From Candidatus Heimdallarchaeota archaeon (GTDB lineage: Archaea > Asgardarchaeota > Heimdallarchaeia > Heimdallarchaeales > Heimdallarchaeaceae), in NCBI GenBank assembly GCA_030668875.1, contig DAOVER010000009.1, positions 30,001 through 62,000 on the forward strand: DNA of 32,000 nucleotides, in the 5' to 3' direction. Below, piece after piece: positions 1-23,005 of the stretch. How positions within the stretch are numbered: position 1 is the stretch's first letter; every line of letters starts with the position of its first letter. The notes below the pieces were generated by a model. It was not told where the DNA came from and searched no databases. It worked only from the letters and a program-made list of their open reading frames with translations. A program made the position numbers and the translations under genes.

Positions 1-289
1 TAAATCTACGAATGAAAAACATAAATATTTGATAAAAAGCAGCCATTCTTTCATCAACATGAATAAATCTGAAATCATTGATTGGTCGAACATATTCTTT
101 TTCCCAATCTCTACAAGCTGCCTTCATTAATGCTTCTATTACATTTTCACTGAGATTTGGCATTGCTGTATGTATGCAATCCTGAAGTTTTTCTAATACT
201 TCAACTTGTCCCTTATTGAGCATTATCTTTCTCGAGCTAATAAGAGCCGAATTAAGTTTTCCTTGATCGAGCTCAAATGTAACACTCAT
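1..289 (-). CDS. Hypothetical protein, truncated at window start
   Basis: Manual translation from ATG at 289 is open for 96 codons to the window edge (MSVTFELDQGKLNSALISSRKIMLNKGQVEVLEKLQDCIH...). It is divergent from the gene at 453. No family recognised. Confidence 0.6.
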   Translation of the reverse strand, partial: MSVTFELDQGKLNSALISSRKIMLNKGQVEVLEKLQDCIHTAMPNLSENVIEALMKAACRDWEKEYVRPINDFRFIHVDERMAAFYQIFMFFIRRF

Positions 290-422
290 TACTAGGTAAG
301 CCTTCAAAGTTATCTATAAACTTTTGCTCGATATTGAAACAATATGTGACAAATAGTATCTTCTAATCATATCTAGAAACAACATAATCAGAGATTTCAA
401 ATAAAAGAACAATAGTAAAAAA

Positions 423-429
423 TTTTAAG
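423..429 (+). promoter_or_regulatory. Putative TATA box (TTTTAAG) of the 453 gene, probably leaderless transcript
   Basis: A-rich BRE-like run followed by TTTTAAG, ending about 23 nt before the ATG at 453. Confidence 0.45.
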
Positions 430-452
430 TCAGTTAATAGATACTGTAAAGC

Positions 453-1004
453 ATGTCAGTGCATTTTGAGAAACCTGGTGATCACACAGAAGAAGTACTC
501 AATTTAGTGCAACAGAAGGTGGATGAGCAAAAAATCTCTCAAGTTATAATCGCAACAACCAAAGGAGATACTGCTCTAAAAGCGGTTTCTTCCTTAAAGA
601 ACTGCAAGATTGTCATTGTAACACATCAGGCGGGTTTTAAGGAGCCTGGAGGAATGGAGATTGAAGAAAATATTATCAGAGAGATTGAAGCTAAAGGAAT
701 CAAGGTTGTAACTGCTACACATGCTCTTGCAGGTGTTGAAAGGGCTGTAAGAAAGAAACTAGGCACTTGGATGACTGTTGAAATCATGGCTCAAACGCTT
801 AAAATATTTGGACAAGGAACGAAAGTATGCGCAGAGATTGTAGCAATGGCTGCTGATGCTGGGGCAATTTCTCTAGATAATGTCATTGCAGTAGGGGGAA
901 CAGGTAGAAGTGCTGACACGGCTTGGATTATCAAACCAGTTCATACACATAATTTCTTTGACATGAAACTAATAGAATTAATATGTAAACCTAAAAACAA
1001 CTAA
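453..1004 (+). CDS. Pyruvate kinase C-terminal (alpha/beta)-like domain protein, conserved archaeal family
   Basis: Motifs HFEKPG..HTEEVL, IIATTKGDTA, VIVTHQAGF, FGQGTKVCAEI..MAADAG, AVGGTGRSADTA and LICKP are typical of this family. Confidence 0.8.
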   Translation: MSVHFEKPGDHTEEVLNLVQQKVDEQKISQVIIATTKGDTALKAVSSLKNCKIVIVTHQAGFKEPGGMEIEENIIREIEAKGIKVVTATHALAGVERAVRKKLGTWMTVEIMAQTLKIFGQGTKVCAEIVAMAADAGAISLDNVIAVGGTGRSADTAWIIKPVHTHNFFDMKLIELICKPKNN

Positions 1005-9084: not shown

Positions 9085-9615
9085 ATGACAAGCTACAAGT
9101 ATACTTTCAAGATTCTATTACTCGGAGATGGAGCTGTTGGAAAAACAAGTCTAGTTCAGAGATTTATACACAACAAATTCCAATCTGGTTATCTTATGAC
9201 AATAGGAATGGAACCTTATTCAAGATTTGAAACTATCAAAGACACAAGAATATGCCTCCAATTATGGGATATTGCAGGTCAGGACCGTTTTGCTTCGATG
9301 AGACAAATCTTTTTCAAAGGTAGTTTAGGGGCTCTTGTCACATACGATATTACTCGACGTCAATCTTTTGAGAATCTTAAGACATGGATAAAGGAAGCTC
9401 AAAATGAAAGTCCTCGTATCATGCTTTTGCTCGTAGGTAATAAAAACGATCTAGAAGACCTTCGTGATGTATCAACTGAAGAGGGCAAAAAATTTGCTAG
9501 AGAATCTGGATGTATTGGTTTCATTGAAACTAGTGCAAAAAGTGGTACAAATGTCGCGGATGCCTTCATAACAATGGGTGAAGAAATCCTTAATGGAGTA
9601 GAAAGTCGAGACTAA
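9085..9615 (+). CDS. Rab-like small GTPase (Ras superfamily)
   Basis: G1 GDGAVGKT, switch I TIG, G3 WDIAGQ, G4 NKND, G5 ETSAK; Rab-like FFKGSLGALVTYDIT. No C-terminal Cys. Confidence 0.92.
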   Translation: MTSYKYTFKILLLGDGAVGKTSLVQRFIHNKFQSGYLMTIGMEPYSRFETIKDTRICLQLWDIAGQDRFASMRQIFFKGSLGALVTYDITRRQSFENLKTWIKEAQNESPRIMLLLVGNKNDLEDLRDVSTEEGKKFARESGCIGFIETSAKSGTNVADAFITMGEEILNGVESRD

Positions 9616-10310: not shown

Positions 10311-10410
10311 AATACAATACCTTCATTCTGCTACTCTTTTTTAAAAATTGTTGTTGGATACTAATCAATCTAATGGGTACGTTTTTATTTATTGCTTTTT
10401 TTCTTTCCTC

Positions 10411-10890
10411 ATGAGCACTGGAAAAATCATTGTTCAATTACATAACTTCAGTAGTATCAACCTTTGTCGAGAATTCACTAAGATTTCATTAGGTTTAGGT
10501 GCAAGAGATATAATTTTCACTAAGGCTGCTGGAACTGGTGCTACTACTGGTGTTCCAATTGCACAAAAGTTAGCACATGCGAAGAAAGCTAATGTTTTGT
10601 ATCTTCAAGAGATTGAAGATGCTATTGAGCTAACCTCACCTGACGAAGTGTATTTATTCATTAAACGACCTTTCTCAAAGGAAAATTTTAACGCTAATAC
10701 TATCATTGAAAATTATAAGGAAGGAAAAACTATTTTACTCATCTTTGGTGGAGCTGATCCTGGCATAACAAAAAGAGAGTTAGAATTAGGAGCCCCTGTT
10801 TACTTTAACAAGGTCAAAGAGCTAGGTTGTTTAGGAGAGGTAACCCTATCACTTTATTTATTAAGAAATCTAATTGAAGAAAAGGATTAA
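10411..10890 (+). CDS. SPOUT-superfamily RNA methyltransferase-like protein (COG4080-type archaeal family)
   Basis: IVQLHNFSS, FTKAAGTGATTGVPIAQKLA, EIEDAIEL..PD, knot-like LIFGGADPGIT. ATG at 10411 sits about 20 nt after a TATA-like TTTTTATTTA. Confidence 0.7.
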   Translation: MSTGKIIVQLHNFSSINLCREFTKISLGLGARDIIFTKAAGTGATTGVPIAQKLAHAKKANVLYLQEIEDAIELTSPDEVYLFIKRPFSKENFNANTIIENYKEGKTILLIFGGADPGITKRELELGAPVYFNKVKELGCLGEVTLSLYLLRNLIEEKD

Positions 10891-11423
10891 ATTATATCTT
10901 CTTCTTGAATGATTAATCTAACTAAGTTTGTGAATGCCATTTCTGTATTAGTTCCATTTTTTGCAGAGGTAAAAAGAAATTCTGCATTTGTGTGATCTTC
11001 AACTAATTGTTTCATATCATCTTCTTTGACTTGAAGTTCAGCTAAATCACATTTGTTTGCCAAGAAAATAACAGGTTTCACCCCTACTACCTCAATAAAC
11101 GATTCAACCCAAGATTTGAGGTTTTCATAAGTAGTCATATTTGATGCATCACAAACTGCAAGAGCACCTTTACTCCCAAAATAATACTTGCTTCTAACCT
11201 TTTTGAACACATCTTGGCCCCCTACATCCCAAATTGCTAAAGTTACCAAATGATTGAGATATTCTACTTCTTTTTTCATTATTGTTGTTCCTAGAGTTAT
11301 CTGATATGAAGGATCAAACATATTTGTAACAAAACGTCTAACTAATGATGTTTTACCAACTCTTGCATCACCAATAAGTACTATTTTACTTGTAGAATGT
11401 ATTTTCTTAGACACGAATCTCAC
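10887..11423 (-). CDS. Rab-like small GTPase (Ras superfamily), second copy
   Basis: G1 GDARVGKT, TLG, G3 WDVGGQ, G4 NKCD, G5 TSAK. GTG start uncertain (11423 or 11414). Confidence 0.9.
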   Translation of the reverse strand: MRFVSKKIHSTSKIVLIGDARVGKTSLVRRFVTNMFDPSYQITLGTTIMKKEVEYLNHLVTLAIWDVGGQDVFKKVRSKYYFGSKGALAVCDASNMTTYENLKSWVESFIEVVGVKPVIFLANKCDLAELQVKEDDMKQLVEDHTNAEFLFTSAKNGTNTEMAFTNLVRLIIQEEDII

Positions 11424-12371: not shown

Positions 12372-14717
12372 CTAAGGTATGATATGAAAGTCTAGTTGCA
12401 TGTTATTCATAAGCGAGACTATTTTCTTCCCTTCTTCAGAACCTAGTGGAATACTATTAATCTGACGTATTCTTATTTCGTCTTTTCCTTTATCCTTCGT
12501 TTTCTTAAAATAATCTTGTATGGTACTTAAGATAAACATCATATTATGATCATCACTAAATTCAGGTAAAATTTCGATGTTGTTTATGTATTCAACTTTC
12601 TGTTGTTTCTTAAAGTGAAGAGCTGCGATAGGTTCTTCATTCTTAAGAATAAGTTCTGCAAAGTCTGTGGGCATAGATCTAAGAAAGAATGATCTAAGTT
12701 TGAAACGTTTAAGGAGATATTCTTTGTATAATAGAATTAACGGATCTGCTCTTGGTAAATAAACGAAATTCACTCCACTTTTATCATTTGGTTCTTCGCT
12801 TTTCTGATAAACATAAGCTGTTATTGACTTCTCTATTACCTTTGTTGTAAACTGCACATCCCTCTCTTCTTCGAGAAATCTTCCAGTTCGAACGTTCTTT
12901 GAAGCAATTAGCTCCTTAAGATATACTTCCAATTGAGTGTTAGAAAGACCAGTAAGGTTTGCTAATTGCCTAATAGAGAGTGGTAAATTAGAAGAGAGTA
13001 TTCTATAAATTATTTCTAACCATGCATCTCTTTGTGAATTTACAGATTTTGTTCTTAAATTATTCAAAAACTTAGGAACAGATAACCAAATTACTTGATT
13101 TGAAACATTCTTGGTTTGAATAATTTTGCATGCAGATTCTAGACGATGTAAAGTTGATAACAGCACTCTATCAGATAGATTCAGCGAGCTTTTCAGTTGT
13201 TTGAAATTCACTTTTTCCTTTTGCTTAATTGTATTAAGAGCTCTTTCCTCGAGTACACCTACGTTTCTCGCAGGGCTAAGTTTTGCATAATAGGAATAAT
13301 CTTCTGAATTGATTAATCCTCTAGGAAAACTGCTATACTTACCACGAACAATCTTTCTATCGATTTGCATCTCATTAAGAATGTGTTCTTTTCCAGTAGA
13401 GATACGAATCAGTAATGATTCATAGGATAGAGGGATACCAACAAAGGATAAGCTTCTAAGTAAATCAGCTTTCGTTGCAATTTGTTTGCTTTTAGTAAGG
13501 AATTGATTGTCTATAAGTAAAGGAAAGACATCTTGAATAGAGATAGATTCTTTGCTGCCTTCAGGTTTGGTCAATTTAGAACGATGATAAGTTAATCCAG
13601 AAGATCTTAGAACATAACCCCGTTGTTTTAGAGTATCAACAAAGGTACGAGATTGATTTACCAGCAGTTCAGACTGCATTTTGGGGAAAACAAGGATTTT
13701 TCCTTTATTCTCTGAAAATTCTTGTATTTTGTTTTGAATTTTTTCTTCAAGAGGAATGAATGCTGAATTTTTGATGAGATTAATCACATGTAACTTATCA
13801 CCAATTACTTTGTAATCAAATGTACAAACAGGTTTTCCAGAAACAAAAACAATTTCTTTTTGAATATCTTGTAGTACTGTAAAATCAGCTGAAGACCAAT
13901 AAATCGAATATGGATCTGTAGCCGGAAGAATCTCAATTTGATAGGATTTTTCCTTTGTTTCTTTTTCATCATACTCTTTTAAAAATTCTAATTCATCAGC
14001 AGCCAGAAACCCTTCATAACTGGAATTCTCAATGAAAGGTCCTCTAACTATCTTTTTACTCTCATATAATTCGATTATACTTGTACTTACTCTACTTCCA
14101 GATAAATTAAGGATGGACATAATCTGAGGTACAGTTATTGGACCAAAACTCTTTATGATTTTATAGATTAATTCTTGGATAGCAGACGATTGACTTTTGG
14201 ATTCTTCCTTAAGTAACATTTCAGAGCTGTAAATAGTCCAACGAGTACCATCGTAAAACATGAACACTTGAAAATTTATCCTTAGTTCAGAAAGTATATC
14301 CATTACTTCTTCTTTCTTCAATTTGAACTGTTCGATAATTCTTTGTCTTGTGGATGAACCATGTTCCCTAATGAATTCTAGAACATTTTTTGTCTGTGGT
14401 TTCTTATAATCTATTTCATCTGATAGATTGCTGTAATAAAGTAATTCAAGATTTTCTCTTCCAACGTAAGCTAGCTTTCCAGATATAAATGGTGCTTGTA
14501 TGAGATGTTTGTTTTTTATTAAAGAAGGAATTAAAGTATGAGAAAATGTTCGCATTCTAGCAAATAGTGATTCTGGGTCTTGAAATTGAACAAGATTATT
14601 CAATATTGATATCGCATGACCGTAATTGATCCCTTTGAACTCAGTGGATAAATTCTGTTTCTCAGATATGTATAGAGATAGTTCTTCGAGGTTTAATGAG
14701 ATTTGTGACACAGACAT
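12372..14717 (-). CDS. AlkZ/YcaQ (HTH_42)-like winged-helix protein with two tandem modules; putative DNA glycosylase partner of Lhr
   Basis: KQNL...LVQFQDPESLFARM (QxQ...LxxR signature), paired winged helices, LPATDPY and LPRADPL motifs. Same module architecture as the Lhr C-terminal region. Confidence 0.6.
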   Translation of the reverse strand: MSVSQISLNLEELSLYISEKQNLSTEFKGINYGHAISILNNLVQFQDPESLFARMRTFSHTLIPSLIKNKHLIQAPFISGKLAYVGRENLELLYYSNLSDEIDYKKPQTKNVLEFIREHGSSTRQRIIEQFKLKKEEVMDILSELRINFQVFMFYDGTRWTIYSSEMLLKEESKSQSSAIQELIYKIIKSFGPITVPQIMSILNLSGSRVSTSIIELYESKKIVRGPFIENSSYEGFLAADELEFLKEYDEKETKEKSYQIEILPATDPYSIYWSSADFTVLQDIQKEIVFVSGKPVCTFDYKVIGDKLHVINLIKNSAFIPLEEKIQNKIQEFSENKGKILVFPKMQSELLVNQSRTFVDTLKQRGYVLRSSGLTYHRSKLTKPEGSKESISIQDVFPLLIDNQFLTKSKQIATKADLLRSLSFVGIPLSYESLLIRISTGKEHILNEMQIDRKIVRGKYSSFPRGLINSEDYSYYAKLSPARNVGVLEERALNTIKQKEKVNFKQLKSSLNLSDRVLLSTLHRLESACKIIQTKNVSNQVIWLSVPKFLNNLRTKSVNSQRDAWLEIIYRILSSNLPLSIRQLANLTGLSNTQLEVYLKELIASKNVRTGRFLEEERDVQFTTKVIEKSITAYVYQKSEEPNDKSGVNFVYLPRADPLILLYKEYLLKRFKLRSFFLRSMPTDFAELILKNEEPIAALHFKKQQKVEYINNIEILPEFSDDHNMMFILSTIQDYFKKTKDKGKDEIRIRQINSIPLGSEEGKKIVSLMNNMQLDFHIIP

Positions 14718-17700
14718 TTATTTCACCAGAGTATATGCGTTTATACCATTTACCTTTTTGATAGAAACTATCGGGGTACTACTACCATGTGAGGGAGAAA
14801 TGGTTTCTATTGCATTAATTATATAATTGAAAGACCCCTCATTCTGAACCCATGGAGCAATATTTAAATCCTTAACAGTAAGTTGCTTTTCGTTACTTGA
14901 TTCAATTTTGCATTGAGCTGCTAATTTTTGGTTTAGCAGAATTAGATAGTTGTCTCCAGAAATATCGAATCTTTCAGGCATATTATTCCTTAACAAAGAA
15001 TGTGCTACATCTGTAGGATGTAGAACATAGAATCGTCCCCTATCCTTTTCTGAGGAATAATCTCTCAAAACTTCAAACTGTTTCTCATGCATAATTAGGT
15101 CATCATAATTCTTTGAAGTGATATAGTAAAAACTCAAATCATCCTCTATGAACCGTCCACCGAATATTTCTTCCTCTTCAATTAGAGCGGATAATATCTC
15201 TTTAATTTTTATCTTTGTTAAAATAACAGGAATAAATGCACGTTCAATTATCTGATTCTCAGAAGGTAACCCTAAGCTGGAAACTATATCTTTTACGTAT
15301 CTTCTTTTGATAACTGTTAAGTCATCATCAAATTCTGGAATGAAATTAGAGATATCCCAATACTCCTGAGGGAGATATGTGTTATTAATTGATCTTACTC
15401 CAATAAGCATATTCGTTTCTAATATCCGTAAAGAGGGTTTTAGCGCCGTACCAGGACCTGTCCACTTATGGGATAAATCTTGTAGATTTGAAGTTCCTTT
15501 TGTTATATGTTTCAAGAGTTCCTCATGTTCAATTTTGAGTTTTCTCCTTTTCCTCAAACCACTTTTTCTGTAACGAGCAAATGTTAAAGAGTATAATTTA
15601 CCATCTTGACAGAGAATTTTCTTTTCCTCTAATAATTTGTTAACTAAGAAGGTAATTATTGCGTTCATTGTCTCTGGAAATCTTGTAATAATCACCTCAA
15701 AACTTAGCACTCCAAAATGGTTGATTAGGGATAGTAAACTGGTTTCATTTATTGCAAGAGAATCTTTTCTTAACCAAACTTTATCCATAACATACTTTGA
15801 TACAATATTTTTTGAGAAGACGCGTGTGATTGTGTCTCCACCCACTAAAGTATCTTGAATTAGAATAAAACCTGTTTTAATTAAAGAATCTTTGATGAAT
15901 TTATTCACTGTTGAAAGGACGGATTTTCCATTTATATCCTCTATTTGTAAACTGAGTACGCGGTGGATTTTTCGAGTATAAGAAACAAGTTCCGATGCAA
16001 TTTTTTGAAGCAATAGGAAATTGTAAGCAACTATATCATCAAGCTGCAAATTATAGATCTGTAGATACTTCCCACGGTGAAGTTTGTACTCAACCGAGCC
16101 TACAACCTCACCATCCAAAAGAATAGGATCAATCTTTCCTTCTCCATAAACATCTCGGATGTGAAGTCTTAACCCTAATTTCGTAAATGGATCAGAACGT
16201 GGAAGGATAAGTGTTTTCTCATCTTCATGTAGAGAGAGGTTGATGAATTCTGCTTTTAGTTTACTAATAGTTTCAAAACGTTTATGAGTCAGATAGTAAT
16301 TAGTTTCTCTAGTTGTGAGTTTCTTTTCGATTATTTTCTTCTTCTTAATTAAATCACGGATATGTTTTTCAACATCACTATACTTGAATCCTGAGATGTG
16401 TGTAAGCTCAATCAAGGATACTGGTCCTAACGATTCTATCAGTTTATTCAAGATGAATTGGATGCTTTTATCATAATCAGGTAATTTATCAAATGTGAAA
16501 TACCTTGATGAGATATCATAAACATTCGGTACAAATTGTTTTGGCAGAAATGAATCAATAGCAACAGACTTTCTCACTAGATGAAGTGTTTTGTCAAGAA
16601 TCATGATGCTTTCTTGTATTATATCCTCGTCAAGATCAATATGTTCAACCAACTCTCTTCTTGTCATTGGTCCATATTTTTGAAGTGTGTTGAGAATTTT
16701 CTCCTCAACCTTAGACAATTCGAACTTTTCTCTGTATGCGACATAGTAATAGGGGAAATGCTCTCTACTCACATAAGACAATCTATTATGACTAAATCTT
16801 CCTTGAATGATTTCGTTTTTTTCAACAAGCTCTCTTACCCAATCAATATCGTAATCTTTAATTCTGAATGCCAAAGAACTCAAATCTGCAATAGAACCAA
16901 AGTCATCTAACAGATACAATATGCTTTCTTTTCCAATAAGAGCTTGTTTAAAATAAGAATCAACAGTGAAATAATAATGAACGAAATTTAGTTCTTCTGA
17001 GGTTAATAATAGTGAATCCTGTTTTCGATTACTCAAATTCCTTAGTAGTTCTCTATCTTCAAGTCTAATAAATTGAGGTTCGAGTGTGGAGGCAATAATC
17101 TGTCCTTTTAGAATCTTATTCTTTTGTTCTAACTCCATAAGAGTTCTTGAGATTTTCTCTTGATCTAGAAGAAGGTATTCAACTATATCACTTTCCGACG
17201 AAGGACCATTGGTTTTTAGATATCGTAGAACAATGTTCTCCAAACAAACTTCAGGATCAAGCTTCCTGGCTTTTACTCTAAACGATTCTGGAACAAAATC
17301 TTCTATTGAAATATATTTCCAAGTTGTTTTTCCTTTATATGTCTCAAAATCCATTCGAGTTATGAGAATAGCTCGTTCAAGCTTTTCAAGACTTAATTTA
17401 ACCTCTTGATTTGGAAGCTCTAAATCCGCTGAGATTTTTGTAGAAGATATAGGAAATTTTTCTTTGACTAAGTCAAGAATTTGTTTATCTTTTTCTGAAA
17501 GCTCAATTGACTGCAAATATATGTTCCAATAGAGGGGAAAATCCTCCAAAGAGATAGTTCTTCGTTCTGTTTGAGAAAGATAAATCTCCATGAACTCTTT
17601 ATTATTGTGTAAAGCAAAAGCCCACGATTTAATTTGTTTGGGGTCAGAAATACAGCGATGATATATGCTAGGAGGCACACTTTCTATTGTTCTTATTGGA

Positions 17701-20444
17701 GAAATAGCTTTAATAGCACGCCTCAGCTGTTTAAGAGAAGATATAGGAAGTTCTTCATTTCTGTAACTACGGTTATTGAATATACTGTCTACTAAATCCT
17801 TCCTGAAAAGTATCTCTTTGGTGCCTTCTTTTCCAAAAACCTTGGACAGAACCTGTTGGTGTAATTCTCTTAGTAAAGCACTTCTATCAGAAATCTGAAC
17901 GATATCCGCTATACCTAAAAGAACAATACCATGAGCAAAAGGGCTTGGAATATCTGTTAATGGAGCTATTTTATATGTATATTCTCCTTTTTCTAACTTC
18001 TTAATGACAGAGTGAGAATTTTCTAAATCCATATAGTCTCGCAAGATTTCTCGATATGTCTCCTTAATAACACAGAAAGAATCTTGCGTTTTTAGAGTTG
18101 GAAATAATCTTCGTGCGTACATGGTTTGTCTGGAAACAGGAATGTATTTGTTACCGCTCCTTCTTAAGATCATAAGAGCTCTATTTGCAACATGTCTAAA
18201 TCGTGTTTGGAAAAGTTCAGTGTTTATGATAGCTTGTTTAACAAGATTTTCCAAGTTATCTGAAGAAATCAAGTTTGGGATGACTGAAGTATCATAGATT
18301 TTGCCTGTTGGTAGCATCAATAAGAAACCGTTATCATTAACAGCTGAAGCTACATCAGCATTAATTTCTCTACCAATAGAAAAAGCAAATGCTCGTGCAA
18401 GAGTATCATTAACCCTCCTTCCAAAGTAAGCATGAAAAATGATAGTCATTCTTCCTTGAGGATCCAAAAATGACTCAATTAGGAGAGATTTTTCGTTTGG
18501 AATAATATTCAAAAAGAGTTGCTGTTCCTTCACATAATCAACAATCGTTTTAGCAATTATCTCATCAACTTTAAATGAAGCTTGAATCCATTCAACTGTT
18601 TCTTTGGCTTTCTCTTTCTGAATTCTCTGAGCAACAACATCAACAAATCTACCAATTTGTTGGGATAATTCAAATGATCGAGGTAGTTCTTCTCCAACCC
18701 AATTAGGTATTGTTGGTCTTCTTCCGAACGACTCCGAAACTACTACACGTAATCCAACAGTTCGTTTGAATTGGTAAGAATGGCTTCCTAATACAAAAAC
18801 ATCTCCAGGAGTAAGTTTTTCAACAAACTTTTCTGAAAGAACCCCTATTCGAGTCCTATAAGTTTCAAGTTCAACCCTGTAATTTGAATTTTCAGGAATT
18901 GTACCAATATTCGTATAAAATATTAATCGAGTATTCCTCTTCTTTCCAAACGCTTTTTCTTTATGATCATACCAAATCTTTCGGTAAACTTTCTTCTCTT
19001 CAATATCTAGATTATATCCACCCAAGTACTCTAATACATTAATGTAATCAACGAAACTAAGCGTTCTGTAATTATACGAGCGCTTAATCATTGTGTAAGC
19101 TTCATCTACATTCCATCTTTTTGTTATGGATATTCCAACTATAAACTGAGCAAGAACATCAAGACAGTTTTGAGGAATCTGAACTTTATCCAGCACATGA
19201 CCATAAGCACTTTTTGTCAGCACGGCGCATTCTATAGCATCATCTCTACCAGTAACAAGGAGCCTTCCACGTGCTATTCTATCAAGAGCATGACCACTAC
19301 GACCAACTCGTTGAAGATATTTTGCTACTGTTTTGGGTGAACCTATCTGTGAAACTAACTCAACGCTTCCGATATCTATCCCCAACTCTAAGGAAGTCGA
19401 AGTTACAGCTGCAATTAACTCATTATTTTTCAACCTGTCTTCTACATCCAACCTAATTTCTCTCGATAAACTAGAATGGTGTACAGCTATAAGAGGTGTA
19501 TATTCATCCCCTAGAAACTCTTTGAGTTTGAAAGCAACGCTTTCTGCTCCTTTTCTCGTATTTGTAAAAATAATTGATGTTTCATGATCTAATGTAAGAT
19601 CAGCTAAAACAGAATAAATCCCTTCTTGCACCGCAACATAGGGAGTATGAAGCAAATCTTTTACTGGGCTTAATACTTCAAGGTCTAGTTTTCTTTGCGG
19701 AGGAAGATTAGCTATGTAGCAGTCGTTTTCTACACCATTATCATCTCTTCCAACAAGAAACCGAGCTATTTCTTCTATAGGTGCTTGTGTTGCAGATAGT
19801 CCAATCTTAGTTAATTTTTTCTCTACAAGTTGAGTTTGAAGATATTCTAAAAATAAAGATAAAAAAACACCTCTCTTGTTTGAGCTAACTTCGTGAATTT
19901 CATCTAGTATAAGCCAGCGAACACTTCTCAGATGTTGTGAGAACTTTGGAGAAGTTAGGATTAAACCTAAGCTCTCAGGAGTTGTAATCAATATATGGGG
20001 AGGAGTTTTCAGCATCTTTACTCGTTGAGATTGAGGAGTGTCTCCTGTCCGAACATCAACTCTTATTTTAGGCACAACAATATTATTTGCAGCTGCAAGA
20101 TCTTGAATTCCTTGCAGAGGTTCTTCTAGATTTTTTCTGATGTCATTTCCTAAAGCTTTGAGGGGGGAAATATAAAGGACATATATCTGATCTTTCAATT
20201 TCCCCTTGGTAGACTCTATGTAAAGCTCGTTAATTGCGGCTAGAAAGGCAGCAAAGGTTTTTCCTGAACCAGTTGAACTAAAAATCAGTGTGTTCTTCTG
20301 CTCATGTATTAGTGGAATAGAGTATAATTGTGGAGGTGTAAAACCTGCAGGGAATCTAGAGGTAAACCAATCTTTTATTTCCTCAGCTAGAAAAGAGAAA
20401 ATAGAATCAGCTGTGGAGGGGTTATCTAGATAATGCAGAGTCAT
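14718..20444 (-). CDS. lhr: Lhr-family SF2 DEAD/H helicase with about 1000-aa C-terminal extension of winged-helix/AlkZ-like repeats
   Basis: TPPQ, motif I SSTGSGKT, YISPLKALGNDI, TTPESL, DEIH, SAT, HHSSL, TSLELGIDIG, QRVGRSGH, LDVLAQ, FRHVANR. The core ends near residue 870. Confidence 0.92.
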   Translation of the reverse strand: MTLHYLDNPSTADSIFSFLAEEIKDWFTSRFPAGFTPPQLYSIPLIHEQKNTLIFSSTGSGKTFAAFLAAINELYIESTKGKLKDQIYVLYISPLKALGNDIRKNLEEPLQGIQDLAAANNIVVPKIRVDVRTGDTPQSQRVKMLKTPPHILITTPESLGLILTSPKFSQHLRSVRWLILDEIHEVSSNKRGVFLSLFLEYLQTQLVEKKLTKIGLSATQAPIEEIARFLVGRDDNGVENDCYIANLPPQRKLDLEVLSPVKDLLHTPYVAVQEGIYSVLADLTLDHETSIIFTNTRKGAESVAFKLKEFLGDEYTPLIAVHHSSLSREIRLDVEDRLKNNELIAAVTSTSLELGIDIGSVELVSQIGSPKTVAKYLQRVGRSGHALDRIARGRLLVTGRDDAIECAVLTKSAYGHVLDKVQIPQNCLDVLAQFIVGISITKRWNVDEAYTMIKRSYNYRTLSFVDYINVLEYLGGYNLDIEEKKVYRKIWYDHKEKAFGKKRNTRLIFYTNIGTIPENSNYRVELETYRTRIGVLSEKFVEKLTPGDVFVLGSHSYQFKRTVGLRVVVSESFGRRPTIPNWVGEELPRSFELSQQIGRFVDVVAQRIQKEKAKETVEWIQASFKVDEIIAKTIVDYVKEQQLFLNIIPNEKSLLIESFLDPQGRMTIIFHAYFGRRVNDTLARAFAFSIGREINADVASAVNDNGFLLMLPTGKIYDTSVIPNLISSDNLENLVKQAIINTELFQTRFRHVANRALMILRRSGNKYIPVSRQTMYARRLFPTLKTQDSFCVIKETYREILRDYMDLENSHSVIKKLEKGEYTYKIAPLTDIPSPFAHGIVLLGIADIVQISDRSALLRELHQQVLSKVFGKEGTKEILFRKDLVDSIFNNRSYRNEELPISSLKQLRRAIKAISPIRTIESVPPSIYHRCISDPKQIKSWAFALHNNKEFMEIYLSQTERRTISLEDFPLYWNIYLQSIELSEKDKQILDLVKEKFPISSTKISADLELPNQEVKLSLEKLERAILITRMDFETYKGKTTWKYISIEDFVPESFRVKARKLDPEVCLENIVLRYLKTNGPSSESDIVEYLLLDQEKISRTLMELEQKNKILKGQIIASTLEPQFIRLEDRELLRNLSNRKQDSLLLTSEELNFVHYYFTVDSYFKQALIGKESILYLLDDFGSIADLSSLAFRIKDYDIDWVRELVEKNEIIQGRFSHNRLSYVSREHFPYYYVAYREKFELSKVEEKILNTLQKYGPMTRRELVEHIDLDEDIIQESIMILDKTLHLVRKSVAIDSFLPKQFVPNVYDISSRYFTFDKLPDYDKSIQFILNKLIESLGPVSLIELTHISGFKYSDVEKHIRDLIKKKKIIEKKLTTRETNYYLTHKRFETISKLKAEFINLSLHEDEKTLILPRSDPFTKLGLRLHIRDVYGEGKIDPILLDGEVVGSVEYKLHRGKYLQIYNLQLDDIVAYNFLLLQKIASELVSYTRKIHRVLSLQIEDINGKSVLSTVNKFIKDSLIKTGFILIQDTLVGGDTITRVFSKNIVSKYVMDKVWLRKDSLAINETSLLSLINHFGVLSFEVIITRFPETMNAIITFLVNKLLEEKKILCQDGKLYSLTFARYRKSGLRKRRKLKIEHEELLKHITKGTSNLQDLSHKWTGPGTALKPSLRILETNMLIGVRSINNTYLPQEYWDISNFIPEFDDDLTVIKRRYVKDIVSSLGLPSENQIIERAFIPVILTKIKIKEILSALIEEEEIFGGRFIEDDLSFYYITSKNYDDLIMHEKQFEVLRDYSSEKDRGRFYVLHPTDVAHSLLRNNMPERFDISGDNYLILLNQKLAAQCKIESSNEKQLTVKDLNIAPWVQNEGSFNYIINAIETISPSHGSSTPIVSIKKVNGINAYTLVK

Positions 20445-21146: not shown

Positions 21147-22433
21147 ATGACTACTCCTAATGACTCTACAGATGACGACCTAATGCCGGATGAAATAATT
21201 GATAGATTTATGTATGATCCTTCATTACTGCATCGCTGGTTAGAGCAATTAGGAATCAGCTATACAATCAATCTACTTTCTTCTTTACGAAAACCCAATG
21301 ATTCAATTTGGGTACAAGTAAATAGAAGTAAAATTGATTTTGATTCTTTGCTAGACATTTTTGAAGATATGAAATTTAGTGCCAGCAAACATCCACTATT
21401 TGATGATATTATTCAAGTCAAAATTGGTTTGAATGATTTTGATGATACAGAAAAAGCGTTACCAATGATTAAAGTTGATAGAGAATCAACAACAAGTATA
21501 GCGCTAGGAAAAGATGTTAATTCAACAAATGTAACCGAAGTAAATCAGTTTTTTGCAGGTGATACAGTAAGAATAATAGATTTTATTGGGAACATAATTG
21601 CTGTTGGTATTGCAGAAATTCACAGTACAGAAGTAAAAGACAAAACTGTCAGAGTGGCAGCTAAAATCATCAAATCACTAGGTATTACTCCTCAACTAAC
21701 AGAATTAATGGTGTATCGAAGAGGGTATTTCAATATCCTTACTCCAACTCAAGTGTTAAGTGTGAAATCGACATATCTGAAACCCGAAGATAATATATTA
21801 GTCATGGCAGGAGATAAAGGGGACGTAGCTAGCTATATTGCTGAATTAACAAACAATAGATGTCCTATAACTTTTATTGTCAACAACAAGCTTCAACTAA
21901 AAGCTGCAAGAAGACAAATAGCAAGAACAAAAAGTAAAGCAATAAGAATCATAAGGCGTCCGTTTCTACAATTCTTAAATGAAAATCATGAAATTAAGTA
22001 TAGTGTTGTATTTTTAGAACCACCGAATTCAAGAACTGCAATAATGCCTACATTTTCATCAAATTTGGGTATATCAAAGCTAAAAATAATAGCTACAGCT
22101 CAACAGGAAATAATTACCAATCTCTATCGTTGTCTCTACGATTTAGCAACAATCACCTACTTCACTCATTCAGTTGATGTAAGTGAAAATGAAAATGCTT
22201 ACAATCATATTTTGAGTAAGGCATACTACGAAGATGATAAATTTACTGAAGAAATTAGACAATTACAAAAGAAAAAGATAATGTTTTATAGAGATCTCCC
22301 TGAAGAAACATATTCGGATTATACTTTCGAGCACAAGAATTCTACTATCTATATTGATCCCGTAAAAACAAATAACTCTGGTGGATACATAGCCAAGTTC
22401 AAGTTTGGAAAGAAAGACAAGAATGATAATTGA
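21147..22433 (+). CDS. RsmB/NOP2/NSUN6-like PUA-domain protein with degenerate m5C catalytic motifs
   Basis: N-terminal helical region, PUA-like GDTVRI...IAVGIA, then Rossmann region. Motif positions read VMAGDKGDVA, LEPPNS and YFTHS...ENE instead of D.CAAPGGK, DAPCS and YSTCS...ENE. Confidence 0.7.
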   Translation: MTTPNDSTDDDLMPDEIIDRFMYDPSLLHRWLEQLGISYTINLLSSLRKPNDSIWVQVNRSKIDFDSLLDIFEDMKFSASKHPLFDDIIQVKIGLNDFDDTEKALPMIKVDRESTTSIALGKDVNSTNVTEVNQFFAGDTVRIIDFIGNIIAVGIAEIHSTEVKDKTVRVAAKIIKSLGITPQLTELMVYRRGYFNILTPTQVLSVKSTYLKPEDNILVMAGDKGDVASYIAELTNNRCPITFIVNNKLQLKAARRQIARTKSKAIRIIRRPFLQFLNENHEIKYSVVFLEPPNSRTAIMPTFSSNLGISKLKIIATAQQEIITNLYRCLYDLATITYFTHSVDVSENENAYNHILSKAYYEDDKFTEEIRQLQKKKIMFYRDLPEETYSDYTFEHKNSTIYIDPVKTNNSGGYIAKFKFGKKDKNDN

Positions 22434-22435
22434 TT

Positions 22436-23005
22436 TTATCTCATCATCTGGGTATCAAGTTCATTCACTAACCAAATGAAAGCCTCTTTGATACCTTTGC
22501 CATGCAATATACTTGTGTCAAAAACAGCAAAAGTTCTATCTTTTAAATCAAGATGCAAGCCCAACATCTGAATGAGTAGAGGAGCTTCAACAGCACCAGG
22601 AAGATCTTGTTTATTTGCCATGATTAAAGTAGGAACATTTTCCATGTAAGGATTATTGAAAACATGAGTTTTAAGAACATCACGTGCTTCTGGAAGACGC
22701 TCAATGTCAGCAGCATCAATAACAAAGATAACTGCGCTGCAACCTGGGTAATGGGCTTCCCAGAGGAATCTAAAGTGAGATTGTCCGGCCACATCGATTG
22801 CTGTTATTGTCCAACCTTCAAATTCAAAGGATTCAATATTTTGTCCTATTGTTGGTGTAAGGTTTTCAGCGAATTTCCCAAACCTCATAAAACGTGTCAA
22901 AGTAGTTTTTCCAGCCGCATCTAACCCCAGAATCAGGATTTTTGCCTTTTGTTCCTTCTTAAGCTTTGTTCTTAACCAAGAGGAAAATGACCCAAACATA
23001 CTCAT
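22436..23005 (-). CDS. Arf-family small GTPase
   Basis: ILILGLDAAGKTT, PTIGQNIE, DVAGQ..FRFLW..HY, FVIDAAD.ERL.EA, NKQDLP. N-terminal amphipathic extension. Start at 23005 or 22999. Confidence 0.9.
   Translation of the reverse strand: MSMFGSFSSWLRTKLKKEQKAKILILGLDAAGKTTLTRFMRFGKFAENLTPTIGQNIESFEFEGWTITAIDVAGQSHFRFLWEAHYPGCSAVIFVIDAADIERLPEARDVLKTHVFNNPYMENVPTLIMANKQDLPGAVEAPLLIQMLGLHLDLKDRTFAVFDTSILHGKGIKEAFIWLVNELDTQMMR

Follow-up and report, generated by a model that had tools for sequence, protein, structure and literature searches.

A two-gene Lhr helicase locus with repeated AlkZ/YcaQ-like modules in Heimdall-group Asgard archaea

Introduction

Lhr is a 3'-to-5' DNA translocase of helicase superfamily 2 (SF2), a widespread and poorly understood repair helicase. 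The locus described here raises the question of why such a helicase should carry a long tail of repeated modules and be followed directly by a second gene built from more of the same. The locus lies in 32,000 nucleotides of DNA from Candidatus Heimdallarchaeota archaeon (assembly GCA_030668875.1, contig DAOVER010000009.1, positions 30,001 to 62,000), and this whole stretch, to which all positions refer unless another contig or locus is named, is called the window. Its G+C content is approximately 34%, and homologs of the locus proteins carry the database labels Heimdallarchaeaceae or Heimdallarchaeota, including AB_125 and Heimdallarchaeum endolithica. An earlier interpretation made from the letters of the window, referred to here as the sequence-only reading, had proposed a machine combining helicase, scaffold and glycosylase. 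The two genes are the following.

14718-20444, minus strand: Lhr helicase gene (P0001), an open reading frame (ORF) of 1908 amino acids (aa), with a core at residues 1-873 and a tail of 1035 residues
12372-14717, minus strand: partner gene (P0002), an ORF of 781 aa that abuts the Lhr gene

We favour the view, with a probability of roughly 0.6, that the modules form a non-catalytic array for binding DNA and for assembly, carried by a helicase that repairs crosslinks or forks, with the partner protein bound to the helicase tail.

Helicase core and module array

P0001 is an Lhr of the PRK13767 type, with a complete core and an intact motor. Residues 1-873 scored 1046 bits against the NCBIfam family PRK13767 (cut-off 849), the Pfam families DEAD, Helicase_C, WH_Lhr and DEAD_assoc were all above their cut-offs within the core, and the SF2 motifs are readable (GSGKT for motif I, DEIH for II, SAT for III and QRVGRSGH for VI). 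A profile search of the whole genome (3.2 Mb, 92% complete) returned P0001 as the sole match to DEAD_assoc and, by this measure, as the only Lhr of the genome. The rest of the helicase and the whole of the partner divide into five units.

17826..20444, minus strand: Lhr core with RecA1, RecA2, winged helix and domain 4 (P0001 residues 1-873), placed from NCBIfam and Pfam matches
16995..17825, minus strand: L1 (P0001 residues 874-1150), a winged-helix unit lacking a barrel, corresponding to the second and third winged helices (WH2-WH3) of the C-terminal domain (CTD) of bacterial Lhr
15810..16994, minus strand: L2 (P0001 residues 1151-1545), a predicted full AlkZ/YcaQ-fold module of three winged helices and a beta-barrel
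14721..15809, minus strand: L3 (P0001 residues 1546-1908), a second predicted full module and the least conserved
13563..14717, minus strand: N1 (partner residues 1-385), a predicted full module and paralog of L2
12375..13562, minus strand: N2 (partner residues 386-781), a predicted full module and paralog of L3

These boundaries agree with the approximate module coordinates of the sequence-only reading, which had also placed the two abutting ORFs correctly, described an intact core of about 870 residues, and listed signature strings that were all found at their places.

Ortholog alignments of shallow depth were used for the partner (A1; 20 sequences that are 45-90% identical to P0002), the long Lhr (A2) and the tail (A3). 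By profile-profile comparison, tail residues 303-1032 matched partner residues 36-760 with a probability of 99.7% (E value 2.5e-25), and the two halves of the partner matched each other at 97%. With the alignments split into the five units and compared pairwise using hhalign, we obtained probabilities of 99.0% for L2 with N1, 97.9% for L2 with N2, 97.8% for N1 with N2, 97.1% for L3 with N2 and 95.3% for L3 with N1, while L1 was linked to L2 (97.5%), N1 (96.4%) and N2 (96.6%). The direct comparison of L2 with L3 was weak (17.6%), and these two are joined via N1 and N2. Repetition of the five units across the two genes, far beyond chance, is confirmed. The best pairs, L2 with N1 and L3 with N2, identify the partner as a copy of the two-module unit L2-L3.

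The linkage of this family to canonical YcaQ-like proteins runs through L2, which matched those of the Heimdall genomes at 97.2% (E value 3.5e-11, hhalign), the same comparison being weak for N1 (23.6%), L3 (1.3%) and N2 (0.2%). The Pfam AlkZ-rel match in the helicase falls at residues 1202-1272, within L2. The helicase exceeds the Pfam gathering scores of AlkZ-rel (37.8 versus 26.5) and AlkZ-like (27.7 versus 25.9), and the partner, with 23.0 bits, is below the cut-off of 25.9; some of its orthologs have precomputed matches to PF06224 or PF24741. When the partner-family profile was compared with the sequences in the PDB, no AlkZ, YcaQ or Lhr chain was recovered, only a Z-alpha winged helix at an E value of 0.2, and the relationship of the partner to AlkZ is thus detectable only by fold or via the L2 profile.

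Some features of individual units are also conserved. The string L-P-x-x-D-P at the start of the beta-domain corresponds to a conserved P-L-D-P string in the canonical YcaQ-like proteins of the same genomes, and L2 has a conserved string R-L-H-x-R-D-x-Y-G-E-G. N2 is the most basic unit (isoelectric point 9.45, net charge +13) and has a conserved basic and aromatic loop at residues 673-685, of low confidence in the model and probably flexible. From its composition and its model, N2 would be the best candidate for direct contact with DNA.

Predicted folds

AlphaFold2 models were built for the partner from A1 (mean predicted local distance difference test score 80.7) and for the tail from A3 (85.9, with a predicted template modelling score of 0.69). 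For both models the top Foldseek matches were AlkZ (5UUJ), DNA-bound AlkX/YcaQ (9ZD6) and the Lhr-CTD of Mycobacterium smegmatis (7LHL), with E values of 1e-11 to 1e-8, and generic multi-winged-helix proteins ranked far below these. Superposition with VIA-align placed N1 (model residues 3..346) on 9zd6_B with a Z score of 26.9 and a root-mean-square deviation (rmsd) of 3.8 over 326 residues, N2 (390..754) on AlkZ 5uuj with Z 23.5 and rmsd 4.7 over 326 residues, and L2 (tail model 271..630) on the AlkX/YcaQ-DNA chain 9zd6_A with Z 27.9 and rmsd 3.0 over 334 residues, and on AlkZ 5uuj with Z 23.2. Overall, the alignments of N1, N2 and L2 with AlkX/YcaQ and AlkZ cover 324-334 residues and have Z scores of 23-28; single winged-helix repressors come next, at Z 10-12. 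As modelled, all three have the HTH_42/AlkZ-like fold, that is, three winged helices in tandem and, at the C terminus, a beta-barrel, in a C-shaped arrangement. For L3, the profile links given above and the modelled secondary structure, which repeats the pattern of three winged helices and a barrel seen in L2, support its prediction as a full module.

The tail matched the 7LHL Lhr-CTD with a Foldseek E value of 1.3e-11, and L1 and L2 together (tail model 7..658) aligned with residues 894..1503 of 7lhl_C with Z 25.9 and rmsd 8.2 over 527 residues. Because L1+L2 spans the entire M. smegmatis Lhr-CTD, L1 corresponds to the WH2-WH3 subdomain and L2 to the AlkZ-like subdomain of an ordinary bacterial tail, and the modelled tail thus has the bacterial-type layout of a winged-helix pair followed by an AlkZ-like C-shaped subdomain after the core. 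In the model the L1 region has winged helices only, with no barrel strands. The "about three repeats" that the sequence-only reading had counted in the helicase are consequently two full modules, L2 and L3, and a barrel-less L1 that belongs with L2 to an ordinary bacterial CTD, so that the novel parts are L3 and the partner. Superposition of the modules on AlkZ, AlkX/YcaQ and the bacterial Lhr-CTD had been set beforehand as the test on which the proposal would stand or fall, and it was obtained with both Foldseek and VIA-align.

Catalytic motif

Active AlkZ/YcaQ enzymes use an (H/Q)-aliphatic-(D/Q) motif in a strand of the first winged helix (PMC9040887), and in YcaQ/AlkX both motif residues are essential (PMC13303869). 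By inspection of the alignments, L1, L2, L3 and N2 do not have the (H/Q)-x-(D/Q) motif. Aligned with the canonical YcaQ-like family by hhalign, L2 has G-S-I-(E/A) at the motif position, followed by a deletion, and nothing comparable occurs at that position in L1, L3 or N2. The fifth unit has the following site.

14580..14588, minus strand: N1 residues Q44-F45-Q46, which occupy the place of the catalytic Q-x-Q/D motif; the model puts residues 44-45 in a strand

This site is the strongest argument for the machine of the sequence-only reading, in which at least one module, N1, would be a working glycosylase of the AlkZ type, delivered by the helicase to unhook crosslinks or take out bulky adducts, the other modules serving as scaffolds. 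The three residues fit the (H/Q)-x-(D/Q) pattern of the known enzymes and lie at the strand position of their motif, N1 superposes on DNA-bound AlkX/YcaQ at Z 26.9, and A1 shows full or near-full conservation of F45, Q46, D47 and E49, with F45 invariant and Q46 present as glutamine in 18 of the 20 orthologs. However, position 44 is glutamine or histidine in only six of these and hydrophobic (L, I, V, M, F or Y) in the other 14, phenylalanine stands where the motif calls for an aliphatic residue, and more distant partners have Y-F-S and M-F-A at this position. Since position 44 is variable and the distant partners are without the motif, it is neither ancestral nor conserved in the partner, and with both residues essential in YcaQ/AlkX this speaks against an active N1. 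In addition, the genome already has a canonical enzyme.

Contig C39 of the same genome (G000), locus L023, 1348-2568, minus strand: canonical YcaQ-like (HTH_42) gene, 406 residues, PF06224 at 71.6 bits

The protein is a single module with an intact V-Q-L-D motif and a long Gly-Tyr-Tyr loop region, it is unlinked to Lhr, and 16 of 23 further genomes searched within the genus contain an ortholog. Judged by the motif, which is absent in four of the five units and not conserved in the fifth, the glycosylase case is weak, and we consider an active enzyme within the array quite improbable.

Conservation of the gene pair

Every one of the 24 family genomes searched, from five genera, has the pair. 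In a sister family (f3) a helicase of 1670-1789 aa is followed by a gene of 724-759 aa; the Lhr tail matches L3 and N2 (84-94%), the first half of the partner matches N1 (97.6%) and the second half N2 (98.8%), and the five-unit, two-gene layout is therefore older than the split of these families. In another sister family (f2) an Lhr of 1851 aa overlaps a partner truncated by the end of the contig, and two distant metagenome lineages have an Lhr of 1946 aa or 1916 aa followed directly by a two-module gene of 814 aa or 774 aa. Co-occurrence of the two genes in related genomes, the second test set beforehand for the proposal, is thus found in the family and, in diverged form, in two sister families and in two lineages known from metagenomes, so that the finding withstood both tests. 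The family of the partner is small, with only 51 proteins at an E value of 0.001 among 1.84 billion representatives. Compared with close relatives, the ratio of nonsynonymous to synonymous substitution rates (dN/dS) was 0.06-0.10 in both halves of the partner, at synonymous divergences (dS) of 0.34-0.52, and by this measure the partner is under strong purifying selection.

The partner might instead function apart from the helicase, as would, for instance, a DNA-binding or regulatory protein made of several winged helices, having only its operon and its ancestry in common with Lhr and forming no stable complex with it. Some orthologs are indeed labelled "GbsR/MarR family regulator", only generic winged-helix families rise above noise when the partner is compared with Pfam, and stand-alone relatives with one or two modules exist. 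But in every lineage in which a two-module partner was located with its context, its immediate 5' neighbour is a long Lhr, which in most cases it abuts or overlaps, the whole predicted fold is AlkZ-like and unlike that of a simple repressor, and chains with several fused modules exist, so that we assign this alternative a low probability.

Other combinations of the units were found among Asgard archaea. Lineages labelled as Odin- or Asgardarchaeum have a core followed by L1, L2 and L3, and one lineage has a core, L1 and three full modules fused in a single chain of 2345 aa, for which no partner gene was detected in the flanks examined. Another combination is a core followed by two L1 units. 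In one other Asgard family (L056 in G067, L064 in G056, and protein P0074) the Lhr core is broken by inserts of approximately 515-575 aa, placed downstream of motif I and between the two RecA halves, which are probably inteins such as are reported for some aLhr2 proteins; the tail of these proteins is L1+L1 only. The long form of Lhr was found in none of the 59 and none of the 54 genomes of the two largest families searched.

The gene junction

The two genes meet without a gap, as follows.

14715..14727, minus strand: junction, with a Shine-Dalgarno-like GGTGA at 14723-14727, the TAA stop codon of the Lhr gene at 14718-14720 and the ATG start codon of the partner at 14715-14717

The Shine-Dalgarno-like element precedes the ATG of the partner by five bases, and on this arrangement the pair reads as stop-start coupled (TAA-ATG). 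TAA followed immediately by an in-frame ATG occurs in nine of the 13 genomes of the Heimdall genus that were examined, namely this one and eight of the 12 others. In three more the first ATG comes after 24 bases of open reading frame, and in the remaining one the sequence is TAAaATG, with the partner in the +1 frame. Outside the genus, an ATGA overlap is found in two of the three genomes examined in f3 and in the single f2 genome, and in far lineages the gap between Lhr and partner is 43-68 nt. The common frame and the missing gap could suggest one gene, interrupted by an assembly error, a recent nonsense mutation or a stop that is read through to give a five-unit protein of 2690 aa. We reject this hardly credible alternative: all orthologs examined, down to 45% identity, retain the TAA, whereas the reading frame and the spacing differ among them; contigs assembled from four runs of a single study show an identical junction; and the GGTGA element precedes the ATG.

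Genomic neighbourhood

The locus is flanked by three small GTPase genes, two of the Ras family and one of the Arf family (9085-9615, plus strand; 10887-11423, minus strand; 22436-23005, minus strand), a typical feature of Asgard genomes. None adjoined Lhr in the other lineages examined, except for an Arf copy in a genome of a different genus of the same family (G064). A Memo-like gene 3' of the pair was considered as a third member and discarded, given that no match was found in G064, in f2 and f3, or in more distant lineages. Conserved more widely than this gene is an RsmB/NSUN-like methyltransferase homolog with a PUA domain (21147-22433, plus strand), which adjoins the long Lhr here and, at 28-48% identity to the copy in the window, in three different Asgard lineages (L066, L059 and L070).

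In distant lineages the immediate 5' neighbour of the long Lhr is either a helix-hairpin-helix/Pol-lambda-finger-like protein of 493 aa (L069, 500-1981, plus strand) or a metallophosphoesterase (L070, 5207-5980, plus strand); both are compatible with a DNA-repair context. An ORF of the DUF2122 family, annotated as a "RecB-family nuclease" (10348-10890, plus strand), is found on the opposite strand some 1.5 kb downstream of the partner; none of the other loci searched had it near Lhr.

Discussion

The role of the AlkZ-like tail in crosslink repair by mycobacterial Lhr is poorly understood. The non-catalytic array that we favour would be a two-gene repair-helicase unit of Heimdall-group Asgard archaea, whose first gene provides the only Lhr of the genome. 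The tail of this Lhr begins with the bacterial-type L1+L2 unit, followed by one additional AlkZ/YcaQ-fold module, L3. The second gene arose by duplication of the L2-L3 unit and would be translated from the same message by stop-start coupling. Its product may then bind the helicase tail, giving one motor with four complete AlkZ-fold modules, which would act as non-catalytic units of DNA binding and assembly and keep duplex or damaged DNA at the motor. Such a role would match that of the tetramer-forming tail in mycobacterial crosslink repair, where the tail and the tetramer of Lhr are required for resistance to mitomycin C and cisplatin (PMC9841417). Any base excision required would fall to the canonical YcaQ-like protein of contig C39. 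The module has been multiplied, a part of the array split off as a coupled subunit, every copy apparently kept under purifying selection, and the motif dropped, which argues for a structural or DNA-handling task and not for base excision. In the bacterial tail, too, QxQ is missing and the DNA surface of the AlkZ type is occluded or buried (PMC8053096). A hetero-oligomeric, asymmetric assembly of this kind may lend itself to dissection more readily than the symmetric tetramer of bacteria, and the two genes would be a further conserved repair pair in the Asgard lineage closest to eukaryotes.

Some points weigh against this proposal. N1 in this genome does have the full Q-F-Q, orthologs of L2 retain a glutamate near the motif position, and some catalysis is possible. 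The CTD of E. coli Lhr reportedly excises uracil by means of an aspartate outside the QxQ site, D1536, identified from a Phyre2 model (PMC10953399), and the missing QxQ is therefore no proof of inactivity. The fold of L3, moreover, is based on profile comparison and modelled secondary structure.

By analogy with the bacterial homotetramer, the array could take the form of a pseudo-tetramer, in which one Lhr and one partner associate and L2, L3, N1 and N2 replace the four CTD protomers. This more specific arrangement is put forward tentatively and seems to us rather unlikely. If true, one motor would be seated on a ring of the kind that is assembled in bacteria around four, and a homo-oligomeric repair scaffold would have been turned into tandem and paralogous modules, each free to specialise, one possible specialisation being a regained lesion-processing site in N1.

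Comparison with known systems

An Lhr with an HTH_42 tail is not new in itself. It is known from bacteria, and a C-terminal HTH_42 domain has already been reported for aLhr2 proteins of Methanomassiliicoccales (PMC8301817), so that the statement in the sequence-only reading that typical archaeal Lhr is core-only was too strong. Existing Pfam AlkZ-rel and Lhr winged-helix families also match the locus proteins already. What appears new is the multi-module, two-gene layout, which the sequence-only reading had not recognised as described in archaea: the literature searched yielded no account of AlkZ-fold modules arrayed in tandem on Lhr, nor of a paralogous two-module partner gene that is conserved.

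With the long bacterial Lhr (bLhr-HTH of M. smegmatis and E. coli) and aLhr2-HTH_42, the Heimdall protein has the same Lhr core. As in the bacterial proteins, its tail opens with a pair of winged helices followed by an AlkZ-like unit of three winged helices and a barrel, and it likewise lacks the QxQ motif (PMC8053096). It differs in having a second full module, L3, and a coupled gene that adds two more. Bacterial Lhr arrives at four AlkZ-like modules through homotetramer formation, whereas each gene pair here is predicted to encode four full ones.

Compared with the AlkZ/YcaQ (AlkX) interstrand-crosslink glycosylases (HTH_42, PF06224), the whole fold of three winged helices and a beta-barrel is predicted for N1, N2 and L2, the P-x-x-D-P string at the start of the barrel is retained, and L2 is homologous at the profile level, but the catalytic motif is absent in L2, L3 and N2 and unconserved in N1. 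The known enzymes are monomeric and have a single module, while the Heimdall modules occur in tandem and are tied to a helicase. The YcaQ-like protein of contig C39 belongs to the same superfamily as the modules, and in contrast to them it retains V-Q-L-D and the Gly-Tyr-Tyr loop region in a single module unlinked to Lhr.

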